Virus record (IMG/VR): IMGVR_UViG_3300031669_006556
DNA from: a virus
Strand: one strand, 5' to 3'
Length of the DNA: 64,000 nt
Every line of letters starts with the position of its first letter. Position 1 is the first letter of the stretch. Under the pieces are notes generated by a model, which saw only the letters and a list, made by a program, of their open reading frames with translations, had not been told where the DNA came from and ran no database searches. A program made the position numbers and the translations under genes. Of this stretch, positions 551 to 63,785 are shown in pieces.

Positions 551-610
551 GCTAATATAATACTTTTTATTGGGATAAAAAAATTTTTAGGCAATTATTT
601 TCAAATTCTT
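551..610 (-). promoter_or_regulatory. Copy of the conserved intergenic promoter-like motif (variant TAATATAATAC...GGGATAAAAAAAT...GGCAATTATTTTCAAA)
   Basis: Matches the recurrent ~55-nt motif; lies upstream (minus sense) of nothing in this window and downstream of ORF 616-1050. Confidence 0.5.
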
Positions 611-615
611 TTCTA

Positions 616-1050
616 TTAATCACCGGTCCAATTACCTGTACCTGCATAAAAATTATGGAGTGCCTCATTTCCATTTCTTACATGCTCATGCCATCTGTTA
701 CTTCCATTAAGTTTCCAAGAATAACCATAACTCTTAATATAAGTTTCTTCCCAAAATCCTTCATCCCCAAATCTTTCAATAAACTCTTCTTTATACTTTT
801 CAAATTGTACAAGACTGGTCATTACTCGACTTGACATATGATCAATTGGCATTTGAATAGACGGTTTTTTCTTATTCAAAGTTTCTTCTGACCAACCAGA
901 TACTCTTCTACGAATATCATCCATGTTTCTAATGGAATCAATCCACTCATTATGTTTTTCCCAATCTTCTTGAGTAGGTTTAACATCATCCCATGTCATT
1001 GTTTTAAGATCCACTTTACGCCTAACGAAACCATCTTCTACTTCTTTCAT
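616..1050 (-). CDS. hypothetical protein
   Basis: 144-aa ORF with AT-rich coding composition like its neighbours; no motif recognised. Confidence 0.5.
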   Translation of the reverse strand: MKEVEDGFVRRKVDLKTMTWDDVKPTQEDWEKHNEWIDSIRNMDDIRRRVSGWSEETLNKKKPSIQMPIDHMSSRVMTSLVQFEKYKEEFIERFGDEGFWEETYIKSYGYSWKLNGSNRWHEHVRNGNEALHNFYAGTGNWTGD

Positions 1051-1099
1051 TCTTTTATGTTTGTATGTTTACTATCAATAAAAAAATTGGTGCACACCC

Positions 1100-1630
1100 A
1101 CAGAAAAGTTTCTCCATGCCCTTGGTTTAAAGGGGATTCGCACCAATTGAGTTTAGCATCTGGCGTTCTACATATATCATCTTGAACTCATACGCGAAAC
1201 TACGTACTATAACAACCATCTTGTTCAAGACACCTGCCGAATCAGTAGCCGTCTCCTGCCCCAAAGTTGCATGGTGGCCTAGCTGAACGGTATCAGCATA
1301 AAGTAGTGAGGAAAATTCGGTTACCTCAAAACCTCGGTGATATTTCTTTTACTATCCCTATCACATAGGAAGATTAATGTCCATTATTACTTTAAGAGTT
1401 CTGGCACTGATTTCTATTTTAAGATGATCTTCAGTTTTTCAGCTTTTTTACCACCGCCCAAGGCCTCTACATAAGAGCCTTAACATTTTGCAGATGACTG
1501 CGCCTAGCCGTATTACAGCTTCAGCATTAAGACTCCAGGTTACCTGGTATTCACTGAACCCAAATCCCCGTCTAATTCGGGTTTAACTTTCACCCTCTTG
1601 GTAACAACTTTCATTAATATTTTAAAGAAC
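1100..1630. ncRNA. GC-enriched ORF-free block (~530 nt); candidate structured non-coding RNA
   Basis: No ORF of 60 aa or more on either strand. GC is visibly higher than flanking coding DNA, and local hairpins are present (e.g. CCCTT-TAAACC-AAGGG on the minus strand). Confidence 0.35.
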
Positions 1631-1631
1631 T

Positions 1632-1976
1632 TCATTTCCCCATGAAACCACCGGCTCCTAAGGTAATTATATCTAATCCTACAAGGATTGCCACAGTTGC
1701 TAATGCAAATGCAATTCCAACCCAAATAGCTACTCTCCAATTCATTCCTCTTGCTTGTTTCTTTGCATAATCAACAACAGTAGATGGCATAGTAACTACT
1801 TCCTTTTTAGGAGTCTTAGGATTATCAACTAAAACAATGTCCATAGATTTTTTAATTCTTCTGGAATCTTCTCCATCAAAATCAATTGTCCAAGTTTTAG
1901 TAGTTTCAGCTGTAATAACACCAAGAAATTGATCTCCATTGGTATAAGTTACTTTTACTTTATCTCCTATTTTCAT
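1632..1976 (-). CDS. hypothetical membrane-anchored protein (C-terminal transmembrane segment)
   Basis: ORF ends with a hydrophobic stretch AIWVGIAFALATVAILVGLDIITLGAGG. Confidence 0.5.
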   Translation of the reverse strand: MKIGDKVKVTYTNGDQFLGVITAETTKTWTIDFDGEDSRRIKKSMDIVLVDNPKTPKKEVVTMPSTVVDYAKKQARGMNWRVAIWVGIAFALATVAILVGLDIITLGAGGFMGK

Positions 1977-2004
1977 AACACTATTATTTATAATATTATA
2001 GTCT

Positions 2005-2062
2005 TAATATAACCAAAAGATTCGAAATAAAAAAATATTTGAGGAATTATTTTCAAAAAATT
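2005..2062 (-). promoter_or_regulatory. Conserved intergenic promoter-like motif
   Basis: TAATATAACCAAAAGATTCGAAATAAAAAAATATTTGAGGAATTATTTTCAAAAAATT. Confidence 0.55.
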
Positions 2063-2439
2063 ATCTAAGCATTCTCTCAGTCCATCCTTTTAATTCTTCC
2101 ATGAATTCAATCAATTCATCTTGACTTAATTTTGGAAAAACTTTAGATCTCATGTAAGCAACTAGGTCTCCAAATGTTTGAGACACTTTATCATCATATC
2201 GTTCCTCAATATTCTCTTTAACTAATTTCATTTTATATAAGCTGTTTTTACTTTCGGGTTTTGTTTAACTTTTTCTATATATTGCCAAGGCTTCTCAATA
2301 CCCTGATATTCCTTTTTGTACCCGTTAAGGTATACTACCACAACTGTATAAACTTTTGGTCTGAGTGGCACTATTATACCCTCAAAGAACTCTCTTCTTG
2401 TATTCTTGAAAAATGGATGCATTTGTCCCTTTATTTTAT

Positions 2440-61555: not shown

Positions 61556-61889
61556 AACACAACAAAAAATCCTACTATTCCAACTGCCCAGGGCAGTGCT
61601 TCTAAAATTTCGATAAACATTTTATTGTGTGTGAACTATAAGTTTGTAAATAGGTTCAGTTAAATTTCTATATTCGCAATGAAGAACTTCGCCTTCACTA
61701 TTTGTGTATGCTTTGAAAAAATCAAATTTAACTCTTTCATCTTCAATTCCTACTACAAAAATAGTAGGTGTGAATAATGAGCCAAGAACAAGTTTGTCAA
61801 CATGCACAAGAAAAGTGTTCGAGTCTTCCAACCGGACTACATCATCACCATTTCCGTATGTTATTGTTTGTGGCTTCATTATATTAATT

Positions 61890-62276
61890 TTATGCTTTTT
61901 CTTTGTAGCGTTCTACATCTACTGAAATAAATGCATTTGAATCTTTATCAATTTTCGAAGAGTGTGTGCCTGTGCGGTTAAAGGAAATATGATATTTGGT
62001 TCCCCAAAGATATCCTTCATCTTCTTCCCAGAAAATAATTACATCAACAGATACTCCACCTTCCCAAGCTTCCCTATTACGAACAAAGGGCTTTTCACCT
62101 GGAAATTCTTTATCCATTTTTGTTAATTGGGATATGGTATCAAACACATCAGTCACTTCCTGAGGAGGATTTTTTGTGTTGTAAGGATAACCATAATCAG
62201 CTGCATCATTAAAGATGCGCTTTTGTTTTTTGGCAATGTTCTCAAAAATATGAGCTTCTTCTTTAAATACTCCCAT
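61890..62276 (-). CDS. hypothetical protein
   Basis: 128-aa ORF. Confidence 0.4.
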   Translation of the reverse strand: MGVFKEEAHIFENIAKKQKRIFNDAADYGYPYNTKNPPQEVTDVFDTISQLTKMDKEFPGEKPFVRNREAWEGGVSVDVIIFWEEDEGYLWGTKYHISFNRTGTHSSKIDKDSNAFISVDVERYKEKA

Positions 62277-62306
62277 AATTAAATAGTTATTTTCTTTATT
62301 TATACT

Positions 62307-62370
62307 TAAATATAACCAAAAGAATTGGGATAAAAAAATATTGGGGCATTTATTTTAAGAAAATGTTAAG
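62307..62370 (-). promoter_or_regulatory. Conserved intergenic promoter-like motif
   Basis: TTAAATATAACCAAAAGAATTGGGATAAAAAAATATTGGGGCATTTATTTTAAG. Confidence 0.55.
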
Positions 62371-62667
62371 GGAGCTGGGGTAGGCCGCTTACGCATGCAT
62401 AAACTCCCTTAACATTTTATCTACTTTGATATACTTTTTCTACAAGGAAAACATTTTTAAATGATATCCATTGCCTATGCGCACCGGAGATATTATAGAA
62501 AATAATTTTTTCCTGGTCTCCAACAATTTTTTCAACTTTTACGATGTCATTTACATAATTTTTGTAAACTCCACCAAGCTCAATTTCTTCAAGAGGAATC
62601 CTGTTTGTAGTTTCTTGAGTTTCTTTTTTCTTAGCCATATTAAAAATTTTTAATTTGTAACAAATAG

Positions 62668-62720
62668 TAATATAACAAAAAAAACCGGGATAAAAAAATC
62701 TCCGGTTAATTATTTTTAGT
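62668..62720 (-). promoter_or_regulatory. Conserved intergenic promoter-like motif
   Basis: GTAATATAACAAAAAAAACCGGGATAAAAAAATCTCCGGTTAATTATTTTTAG. Confidence 0.55.
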
Positions 62721-63180
62721 TTTTTTCACTACTATCTCCATTGTATTTCATCAGGTGCCCTTTAGAGGTCTTAAAAATTGTGTACCATTTATCCTTAAAC
62801 TCAAAAGTTATTTTGTCCTCAGTGAACTTAGAGACCTCTACTTCTCCACAATGGATTAACTTGACAGTTCCTTTTCCATATCCATCTTTTATTTCACCTT
62901 CAAAGTTCCTGTAACTCCAAGGATGGTCATCAACCAAAATGGCCATGCGAACTTTCCCTTTTTGAGTAGGAAATTCGTGTTTAGGTATAACAAAGGACCT
63001 AAGTATTCGGTCATCAGAAATGTCCCTGGGTTCACCAGAGTGTTCCGATCTTTTTTCCAAATATGTATCTAATTCTCCAACATAACACTCAAAGCGGACA
63101 TCCCAATGAAGGCCTGCCCGATCTGCAGTATGTTCCTGGATAACCAGGGTACGATACATTTTCTTATCCCTTATTTGCAT
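62716..63180 (-). CDS. stand-alone LigD-type 3'-phosphoesterase (PE) domain protein
   Basis: LVIQEHTADRAGLHWDVRFE (compare QxHxAxRLHYDFRLE), VDDHPWSYRNFEGEI, GYGKGTVKLIHCGEV; 154 aa. Confidence 0.6.
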   Translation of the reverse strand: MQIRDKKMYRTLVIQEHTADRAGLHWDVRFECYVGELDTYLEKRSEHSGEPRDISDDRILRSFVIPKHEFPTQKGKVRMAILVDDHPWSYRNFEGEIKDGYGKGTVKLIHCGEVEVSKFTEDKITFEFKDKWYTIFKTSKGHLMKYNGDSSEKN

Positions 63181-63729
63181 TACATGTAAATTCTCTGAGA
63201 AACTCCGGCACCTGGTTCAGGAATGGTATAGCCTTCATAAGAATTTCCAGTGATAAGAATGCTTTCAACCAAAGTGCAAAGAGCAATTTTCTCTTCATCA
63301 CTTAAATGTTCTCCCCTTAGAGCTTTGTTGAGTTTAGCAACAATCACTTCCCTTTTGATAGTTTTGCGTGCCATATTATTTTGAGTTAATTTTATTTTGA
63401 GCTTTTCTGATTCCAATGTCAACCCATAACAGAATACCTTTAGGATTCTCAATTCTGGATTCAATACCTTCATTTATATTTGCAATTGTTTCAGATTGTT
63501 CAACAAGTGGAGCTCCTCCATCTTCATCAGATAATTCTGTCATTCCACAAAATATTGCCCCACCCACAACAAGAGCAAGTACAATCCCTACAACAATTAA
63601 TCCGGTAACCAACAGCCCCAGCAATACTGAAAGTAAAGGTGCTATAAATTTCTTAAACAAATATACAGCAATAAGTATGGCTGCAATAATTAACACAATT
63701 TTTATCATAACTTTATTATTTTGATTTAG

Positions 63730-63785
63730 TTAAATATAACCAAATGCTTTAAGAGTAGAAAATCTGAAATGTTAAAAAATGTTAA
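63730..63785 (-). promoter_or_regulatory. Conserved intergenic promoter-like motif (divergent 3' half)
   Basis: TTAAATATAACCAAATGCTTTAAGAGTAGAAAATCTGAAATGTTAAAAAATGTTAA. Confidence 0.4.

Follow-up and report, generated by a model that had tools for sequence, protein, structure and literature searches.

A modular, promoter-like intergenic cassette with occasional nested terminator-like hairpins recurs in a 64-kb stretch of a probable huge Bacteroidota phage

We analysed a 64,000-nt stretch of viral DNA from the IMG/VR record IMGVR_UViG_3300031669_006556 (hereafter the window), in which an element of about 55-60 nt recurs 23 times, always between genes and always on the minus strand. The element keeps fixed internal spacings, encloses a hairpin in some copies, is conserved in related viral contigs and is nearly absent from bacterial chromosomes. 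We propose that these cassettes are early-type promoters for a holoenzyme of the sigma-70 family, most likely that of the host, which carry phage-specific auxiliary modules and, occasionally, nested terminators. We put the probability of this reading at roughly 0.55, promoter activity, transcription start and the identity of the sigma factor being deduced from the arrangement of the sequence.

All genes of the window, its 17 tRNAs and a GOLLD RNA are encoded on the minus strand, and the GC content is ~31%. Most of the content consists of small open reading frames (ORFs) of no known function, tRNAs and accessory metabolism genes, with no structural genes within the 64 kb. The closest protein relatives belong to the huge uncultured phages LR756502.1 and LR745206.1, to Lak phages of Prevotella and to Tenacibaculum phage PTm1, and a Pfam scan identified a type IX secretion system (T9SS) sorting domain in one protein and a TonB-dependent receptor as another. 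Both domains and the nearest protein relatives support a Bacteroidota host, and the virus is most likely a very large phage of this phylum; the largest such phages have been attributed to Bacteroidetes hosts by Al-Shayeb et al. (PMC7162821). Megablast of a 16.5-kb stretch of the window against cultured phages gave zero matches.

Results

The element is confined to intergenic DNA of the coding strand

A scan with a position weight matrix (PWM) covering positions -24 to +9 returned 23 copies, all of them intergenic and on the minus strand; the plus strand yielded none, and the mean in shuffled sequence was 0.12 (copies are named here by the position of the G of the core). Thus, the repeated intergenic element that a first-pass annotation had described in front of operon-like minus-strand blocks is real. 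The exact core GTTATATT is found 22 times on the minus and four times on the plus strand, dinucleotide shuffles yielding a mean of 2.4, and 18 of the 22 map to DNA that our own ORF map leaves intergenic, which makes up 12.7% of the window (binomial p = 3e-13). Copies 35717 and 35623, flagged as coding, sit in a spurious 61-codon ORF. Highest-order Markov k-mer enrichment was uninformative, as sub-words of the motif are themselves enriched. Counted from the core end, the next ATG follows at a median of 26 nt; most copies are followed by 5-40 nt and then an ATG, and longer leaders occur ahead of tRNAs and non-coding stretches.

All positions listed in the first-pass annotation hold a copy, the one given as 36924 being off by ~19 nt (the TAATATAACC box starts at 36905 and 36924 lies in the second box), and the copy implied by its start coordinate 551 was located at 561 (core ATTATATT). 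To these we add copies at 3665, 12977, 23647, 33297 and 43259.

The element combines a fixed core with alternative boxes

On the coding strand the element of the first-pass annotation reads [TTGAAAAAAGTTGCCC] - AAAnA-TTTTTTT-ATCCC - N8-9 - TTTTG-GTTATATT-A. The tripartite description overlooked a second upstream module, a direct repeat of TTAACA, so that the overall pattern is AAAAAAGTTGCCC or TTAACA-N4/5-TTAACA, followed by a T-run with a mid box and by TTTTG-GTTATATT. The core is exact in 20 of 23 copies, and two of the three variant cores keep TA..TT. Its invariant G stands at -14, directly behind a T-rich stretch (-19 to -15), and there is no conservation 3' of the core. A T-run lies 19-20 nt 5' of the core TA, with a T7 run found in 12 copies. 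The mid box, at -22 to -9 relative to the invariant G, occurs as exact T7ATCCC (seven copies), as T7ATTT/GTTTCGA (four copies) or as TTTTTTCGTGTCGAT (14442 and 54501), and elsewhere nothing recognizable takes its place.

The upstream box lies at about -50 to -30 relative to the invariant G. Its first form, AAAA(A/T)A(G/A)TTGCC, is by eye clear in ~5 copies and degenerate in ~4 more; the first-pass annotation had given it as the 20-mer GGGCAACTTTTTTCAAAAAA, which is exact in just two, even with three mismatches allowed. In the second form, the direct repeat, the second TTAACA ends exactly 29 nt 5' of GTTATATT in the copies checked (63740, 45074, 23647, 21176 and 17652), and this spacing is the same with or without a hairpin.

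Hairpins in five copies

Five of the 23 copies contain a hairpin with a T-run, two more than the three terminator-fused copies reported before. Four were folded, with energies of -15.2 kcal/mol for 17652 (z -6.70), -13.1 kcal/mol for 21176 (z -3.83), -11.3 kcal/mol for 45074 (z -5.75) and -10.6 kcal/mol for 62676 (z -3.05); the fifth, AGTTTCTC/GAGAAACT plus T-run in copy 33297, was recognized by eye in the sequence, not by folding. Plain copies show no structure on folding. The strongest hairpins belong to the copies with the TTAACA repeat (class B), where the hairpin fills the 29-nt spacer between upstream box and core and its loop takes the place of the T-run of other copies, the loop of 17652 itself carrying a T-run. 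The U-run of the terminator coincides with the T-rich stretch just 5' of the invariant G. In these five copies an intrinsic terminator of the preceding block would be nested inside the promoter, so that one cassette of 55-60 nt would both end one unit and start the next.

Comparison with the Bacteroidota promoter consensus

Promoters of the primary sigma factor of Bacteroidota are characterized by a -33 TTTG and a -7 TAnnTTTG box (Bayley et al. 2000; Chen et al. 2007; Baez et al. 2019, PMC6847099), and in Flavobacterium johnsoniae T-12, A-11, T-8, T-7, T-6 and G-5 are nearly invariant, with transcription starting 4-5 nt downstream (PMC6847099). The first-pass annotation saw no obvious match to this consensus. 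This holds for the end of the -7 box, as the final TG is missing in 23 of 23 copies and a T at -6 is present in five of 23 (PWM listing). TATATT, however, equals the first six bases of TAnnTTTG, the T-run stands at -33 distance, and homologous promoters in relatives have the full TAnnTTT(G/A). Like Bacteroidota sigma-A promoters, the window copies have invariant T-12, A-11, T-8 and T-7, a T-rich element 19-20 nt 5' and short leaders lacking Shine-Dalgarno sequences, none of which were seen by eye before the start codons of the window. Unlike them, they lose T-6 and G-5 and add the invariant G-14 as well as conserved mid and upstream boxes. At -33 distance class A and most class B copies have TTTT, not TTTG.

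According to the proposed mechanism the element would be read by the core enzyme of the Bacteroidota host with its primary sigma factor, possibly helped by phage factors, and would drive early-type or accessory blocks, tRNAs and non-coding RNAs. TATATT would occupy -12 to -7, the T-run would take the position of the -33 box, and G-14 together with the T-rich -19 to -15 would act like an extended -10. Transcription would start ~14 nt (about 12-16 nt) 3' of the invariant G of GTTATATT or CTTATATT. Two slots for interchangeable modules would add affinity or class control, the mid box between -33 and -7 (ATCCC, TGTCGA/TTTCGA or none) and the upstream box at about -60 to -45 (AAAAAAGTTGCCC or TTAACA-N4/5-TTAACA).

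Copies are also located ahead of a tRNA array (39097), the GOLLD region (35717, 35623) and non-coding stretches (3665, 23647, 561), which argues for a transcriptional rather than a translational signal. Two start codons coincide with the predicted transcription start, at +13 from the G for a DenV-like gene (copy 17652) and at +15 for a PTH2 gene (copy 48898). These positions suggest that both mRNAs are leaderless; the Pfam match of the DenV-like protein begins at residue 1, and the PTH2 start is taken from gene calls.

Two other assignments were considered and rejected. TTTG within TTTTGG does not qualify as host -33 box or as part of the -7 box, as nothing is conserved at the required downstream distance and TA is not fixed 5' of it. 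The downstream CTATAATTAAAA of some relatives was rejected as the true -10 on account of its spacing and more probably opens the leader.

A homologous promoter family in Chryseobacterium phage MA9V-2

A BLAST search with one class B copy matched intergenic DNA of Chryseobacterium phages MA9V-1 and MA9V-2, and we examined the whole 218.5-kb genome of MA9V-2 (OR513085.1). It contains 28 copies of a homologous three-box promoter, AAAATAGTTGCC ... TTTTCATATGTCGAAAA ... TTATATTT(G/A), or in fuller form (T)GAAAATAGTTGC(C/A) ... TTTTCATATGTCGAAAA ... (G)CTTATATTT(G/A). All 28 have the -7 box TAnnTTT(G/A), seven as TAnnTTTG and 21 as TAnnTTTA. TTAACA-type repeats stand in for the first box in some copies. 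Often AAAATAGTTGCC is the 3' arm of a hairpin, and the T-run that follows is therefore both terminator tail and -33 element in this phage. The ATCGACACGAAAAAATT sub-variant of the first-pass annotation turned out to be a real, separately conserved box, as the TGTCGA mid box of the window is the same as that in MA9V-2.

The MA9V-2 copies precede genes for a topoisomerase and a helicase as well as many small genes. A sigma factor gene, MA9V2_076, has its own promoter of this family (TATATTTG), and the near-identical protein of MA9V-1 matches Pfam Sigma70_r2. The family must thus be readable before that sigma factor exists, which favours the host holoenzyme as reader. Capsid, sheath, portal-region and polymerase genes have no promoter of the family and are associated with another recurrent motif, GTGTAYATA or TATAAATA-like. 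Given the position of the sigma gene and the different motif of the structural genes, the sigma factor or RNA polymerase of the phage's own that the first-pass annotation suggested is not a necessary conclusion. The argument is carried over from MA9V-2 to the window by homology.

The separate motif of the structural and replication genes of MA9V-2 can be written GTGTAYATA or GTTATAAATAA and resembles the T4 late promoter TATAAATA; examples are located at 170700-170818 and 64750-64850 of OR513085.1. MA9V-2 also encodes a small protein, MA9V2_198, with sigma-70 region 2 alone.

Conservation in viral contigs and near-absence from bacterial genomes

The exact pattern of the T7ATCCC type (class A) was found in 13 IMG/VR stretches. 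Six of them (L008, L010, L013, L014, L016 and L018, L013 being derived from a 322.9-kb contig) are ~65-80% identical to the window in coding DNA, and the remaining seven share no more than the motif with it. We aligned 12 orthologous promoter pairs on the core without gaps, the relatives having ~70% identical coding DNA. Identity was 0.61-0.73 over -50 to -9, ~0.38 farther 5' and ~0.4 3' of the core, indicating selection on the whole cassette. Promoter 54501 carries TGTCGA in the window and T7ATCCC in its L014 ortholog, and the modules therefore appear to be interchangeable.

For class B we searched IMG/VR with TTAACA-N5-TTAACA-N29-GTTATATT, leaving the two bases after the core unconstrained, and obtained 51 stretches with 42 distinct copies. 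The unconstrained -6 is T in 34 of the 42, and 33 have TG (13) or TA (20) at -6/-5, giving TAnnTTT(G/A); the full -7 box that fails in the window copies is thus present in relatives. Several of the copies have TTTG or CTTG at -33 distance, and many of the contigs encode proteins 40-80% identical to window proteins.

The same class B pattern gave 39 hits in 596 Gb of bacterial genomes, mostly in Firmicutes and other phyla and without the further features conserved among phage copies. No more than one or two of them, on short contigs of Bacteroidales metagenome-assembled genomes, resemble the phage motif. This near-absence indicates that the element is phage-borne and not a chromosomal promoter type of the host. 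The repeated motif is missing from LR756502.1 (two 40-kb regions) and from Tenacibaculum phage PTm1 and is therefore not universal in the Mahaphage/PTm1 group. A literature search with motif strings returned irrelevant matches only, and the papers searched contained no promoter description for huge Bacteroidota phages.

We also compared gene order at 60 synteny breaks between the window and 14 related loci, a crude test given the short loci and distant relatives. The motif is present at 21 of 120 breakpoint boundaries as compared to 22 of 129 boundaries overall and to five of 19 conserved adjacencies. One junction is suggestive, as locus L062 links the homologue of 21227-21421 via a single motif copy to the homologue of 13320-14204, where the window has 6.7 kb between copies 21176 and 14442, with 17652 inside.

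Individual copies

The ranges below denote the element on the minus strand. Class A comprises copy 62676 (62667..62726, PWM score 40.7), whose mid box lies within the hairpin and is followed by the U-run, 62316 (62307..62366, AAAATAAATGCCCC ... T7ATCCC, 40.7), 48898 in front of the PTH2 gene (48889..48948, 38.4), 40049 (40040..40099, 40.1), 39097 (39088..39147, full GAAAAAAGTTGCCC box, 33.5), 35623 (35614..35673, 29.8) and 11301 (11292..11351, AAAAAATAGTTGCC ... T7ATCAC, 38.7). Copies 35717 (35708..35767, T7ATTTAAAA with GAAAAAAGTTGCCC box, 22.9) and 2013 (2004..2063, GAAAATAATTCCTC ... T7ATTTCGAA, 40.3) are designated class A', and copy 561 (552..611, 15.7) combines the core ATTATATT with T7ATCCC and GAAAATAATTGCCT. 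Copy 39097 heads a ~215-nt unit that ends at the terminator 38868 and is followed by the tRNA array, whereas the tandem pair of 35717 and then 35623 precedes a small ORF and the GOLLD region; copy 561 precedes a small unit with its own terminator (249) and then tRNA-Arg. The TGTCGA sub-variant is represented by 54501 (54492..54551, TTTTTTCGTGTCGAT, 32.6) and 14442 (14433..14492, 39.4), and 36913 (36904..36963, 38.6) has the mid box T7GTTTCGAT. In copy 59488 (59479..59563, 36.6), directly 5' of a winged-helix gene, a T7ATTT mid box is found together with TTAACA-N5-TTAACA farther 5'.

Class B consists of 63740 (63731..63790, TTAACA-N4-TTAACA, 29 nt, GTTATATTT, 26.9) and 23647 (23638..23697, 20.6), both without hairpin, and of 45074 (45065..45124), with hairpin and U-run in the 29-nt spacer, and the terminator-fused 21176 (21167..21226) and 17652 (17643..17704, before the DenV-like gene), each with a GC hairpin and U-run. 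Copy 23647, which is kept in L008 and L062, precedes a leader resembling a non-coding RNA and the gene 23245-23472. Copies 12977 (12968..13027, TTAACA-N5-TTTAAT, 24.5) and 3665 (3656..3715, 16.5, before a ~450-nt non-coding stretch) are class-B-like. Copy 43259 (43250..43301, core ATTATATT, 19.6) is degenerate and copy 33297 (33288..33339, core GTTATTTT, 14.1) weak, each having a single TTAACA 5'.

Non-coding RNAs, leaders and other features of the window

The GOLLD RNA (Rfam RF02032) is full-length and located at 34385-34868 (minus strand; 162 bits, gathering threshold 150), with a tRNA-like hit embedded at 34726-34795. It is set in ~1.7 kb of GC-richer non-coding DNA (33625-35347) 3' of the two tandem copies. 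At 36958-37026 (minus strand), just 5' of copy 36913, a sub-threshold match to the bacterial small signal recognition particle (SRP, 4.5S) RNA was obtained (36.4 bits, gathering threshold 40, E = 4.5e-4), which may represent a phage-encoded SRP RNA. Long GC-richer stretches without coding potential, 170-760 nt in length, were noted at 1051-1631, 3206-3712, 23473-23640 and 33625-34384 (minus strand), and none was matched by an Rfam family. Several of the long stretches open with a shared GTAGTAAGAnnAGAGTTACTTCG (near 23600, 34250 and 3560) or follow AGTTCTTTAAAA; GTAGTAAGAnnAGAGTTACTTCG is also found near 37250 and 38100 in the tRNA region. The start GTAGTAAG is kept after the orthologous promoter in L008, L048 and L062.

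Two paralogous small units, 38835-39097 and 220-561 (minus strand), combine a promoter copy with a leader common to both (CATAAATTGAA ... AACTTTTTG ... TATATAATAAAA), an ORF of ~35 codons and a strong terminator, at 38868 and 249, respectively, and both sit just before tRNA genes. Directly 5' of tRNA-Arg (159) and tRNA-Phe (38416) the sequence TCTTTGACGTATTGTAAT(T/A)T occurs at 166-190 and 38417-38443 (minus strand); it might direct processing or represent another promoter type. At 26482-26555 (minus strand) lies a tRNA with the anticodon CTA, an amber suppressor that ARAGORN labels Pyl, which suggests possible read-through or recoding of TAG in this phage. Several gaps of the ORF map, at 63181-63375, 45731-45931, 61520-61621 and 5369-5473, resemble coding sequence.

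The window also encodes unusual phage cargo at 5773-7734, 20337-21140, 28772-30688 and 30771-33224 (all minus strand), comprising the TonB-dependent receptor (plug and barrel), a YaiO-type outer-membrane barrel, a cadherin-like protein that carries the T9SS sorting domain, and a protein of 817 residues in which the shoulder and repeat domains of the major vault protein are joined by an SPFH domain. A gene set for NAD+ salvage and synthesis is located at 3915-4892, 8559-9734, 12296-12943 and 13320-14204 (minus strand). Its members are an AAA_28 plus cytidylyltransferase protein, which we read as a NadR-like domain pair, a nicotinamide phosphoribosyltransferase, an isochorismatase-family protein, possibly a nicotinamidase, and an NAD synthase; a macro-domain protein is encoded nearby (4889-5368, minus strand).

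Discussion

The promoters described here lose two bases that are nearly invariant in the -7 box of the presumed host and gain a G 5' of it, which raises the question of how they are recognized. We favour the sigma-70-type holoenzyme of the host, and a number of observations weigh against this choice. Of T-6 and G-5, nearly invariant in F. johnsoniae (PMC6847099), the former is missing from most copies and the pair from all, the -33 position reads TTTT, and neither an invariant G-14 nor strongly conserved mid boxes have been described for host promoters. Moreover, the TTAACA-repeat form is essentially absent from bacterial genomes, and the argument from MA9V-2 depends on homology of promoter architecture between distant phages. 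The missing host-box bases, the extra G and mid boxes and the restriction to phages would also fit a phage-encoded sigma factor or co-factor.

The loss of the last two -7 bases makes such a factor a serious rival, which we nevertheless consider clearly less probable than the host holoenzyme. The element would then be a promoter for the host core enzyme with a phage-encoded sigma factor, or with the host sigma factor remodelled by phage proteins in the manner of T4 AsiA/MotA. Phage proteins would in this case recognize GTTATATT, which is invariant, and the mid boxes that distinguish the classes (ATCCC, TGTCGA). Canonical TAHHTTTG is not enriched intergenically in the window (four of 37, the chance level), a core this invariant is unusual for housekeeping promoters, and the conserved boxes are centred near -27, the position of the T4 MotA box. 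Related jumbo phages do encode sigma-like proteins (MA9V-1 ORF23; MA9V-2 genes 076 and 198), and a winged-helix (Trans_reg_C) protein is encoded directly behind copy 59488. On the other hand, the MA9V-2 sigma gene itself lies behind a promoter of the family, and the swap of ATCCC and TGTCGA between orthologs fits interchangeable modules better than strict temporal classes. In agreement with the first-pass annotation, which found no sigma factor or RNA polymerase encoded in the window, Pfam scans of ~45 window ORFs and the precomputed Pfam columns for 42.9-64 kb were free of domains of sigma factors, RNA polymerase, AsiA and MotA. Neither the window nor the loci retrieved from close relatives contained a homologue of the MA9V sigma factor, and an alignment of MA9V-type sigma factors searched against motif-bearing IMG/VR contigs, with limited sensitivity, returned nothing relevant.

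Recognition by a phage-encoded RNA polymerase, virion-packaged or not, that acts independently of the host enzyme as in the phiKZ/AR9 jumbo phages or N4 appears improbable to us. The phage is very large and its AT-rich extended consensus resembles AR9 early promoters, AAATATATATTAT-N6-G, which contain TATATTA (PMC5312081). Yet conservation downstream is low (~0.4) and no start nucleotide is conserved, whereas AR9/phiKZ start at a fixed position 6 nt downstream; the -7/-33-like geometry and the full TAnnTTTG of relatives indicate a sigma-70-type reader, and the annotations of MA9V-1 and MA9V-2 list sigma factors and no RNA polymerase subunits. With a hairpin in just five of 23 copies, an N4-type hairpin promoter does not fit either. 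We regard it as the least likely explanation that the element is no promoter at all and serves as a recombination or mobility element, be it similar to repetitive extragenic palindromes or miniature inverted-repeat transposable elements or a homing or recombinase site, or as an array of sites bound by a protein of replication or packaging. Its repetition at a length of ~55-60 nt and the L062 junction at a copy would suit such a role, but its strict gene-wise orientation and the fixed short distance to start codons and RNA genes argue against it, as do the lack of terminal inverted repeats and target duplications and the lack of enrichment at synteny breakpoints.

The sole DNA-binding candidate in the window scans is the winged-helix protein encoded at 58756-59454 (minus strand), which has 232 residues and a C-terminal winged helix of the OmpR/PhoB type. 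Such proteins usually recognize direct repeats whose period is 10-11 bp, and by analogy the protein at 58756-59454 is a candidate for reading the TTAACA repeats; a search for contigs in which protein and repeats co-occur returned one relative only. We tentatively suggest, as a speculation that goes beyond the evidence for phage factors discussed above, that a modular promoter grammar, read by phage activators or phage sigma factors, may be common to the huge and jumbo phages of Bacteroidota. A fixed core (G)TTATATT(T) may be combined with interchangeable TTAACA repeats (10-11 bp period), AAAAGTTGCC, T7ATCCC or TGTCGA, binding of the winged-helix protein to the TTAACA repeats being one example. 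If true, this grammar would amount to a temporal programme of the MotA kind in a phylum whose phages have hardly been studied for control of transcription, and the same cassettes would be portable promoter-terminator joints.

As a regulatory signal of phages the element is well defined but of a rather ordinary kind, and given that conserved phage promoter motifs are common its existence is unsurprising. Its value lies in a precise, testable promoter model for an uncultured huge Bacteroidota phage, with 23 sites, a predicted start and defined modules, and the same architecture in the cultured phage MA9V-2 makes it directly testable there. The motif can be used to delimit transcription units and to recognize related metagenome contigs, as illustrated by the 51 IMG/VR stretches retrieved with one pattern, and is a source of compact promoter-terminator parts for Bacteroidota.

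Among known systems, the PeSL elements of T4-type phages provide a close parallel. They are composite terminator/early-promoter cassettes in variable genome regions, and a role in the shuffling of cassettes has been proposed for them (Arbiol et al. 2010, PMC2839356; Comeau et al. 2014, PMC4122927). Like PeSL, the window element is a short conserved motif of early promoter type, joined to a terminator-like hairpin in part of its copies, that faces in gene direction and is repeated between small, mostly unknown genes, with 23 copies in 64 kb. In PeSL the stem-loop is located directly 5' of or within the promoter; it is present in five of 23 window copies and common in MA9V-2, whose annotation includes several T4-type protein names, and PTm1 and the MA9V phages carry some such proteins. 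Unlike PeSL, the element has the -7/-33 geometry of Bacteroidota and not the -10/-35 geometry of E. coli. PeSL-style shuffling was considered for the window and is not supported by the frequency of the motif at synteny breakpoints. With T4 early and MotA-dependent middle promoters the element shares a phage-specific extended consensus that is far more conserved than that of the host, a core of the -10 type and, near -30, alternative boxes by which classes could be defined, but the boxes are unrelated in sequence and the window ORFs scanned contain no MotA or AsiA domain. Early promoters of AR9 and phiKZ likewise have an AT-rich extended consensus with TATATTA that is repeated before early genes of a giant phage (PMC5312081); they differ in the start nucleotide fixed 6 nt downstream and in being read by phage polymerases, genes for which were found neither in the window scans nor in the annotated relatives, whereas the element described here has the upstream geometry of a sigma-70-type promoter.

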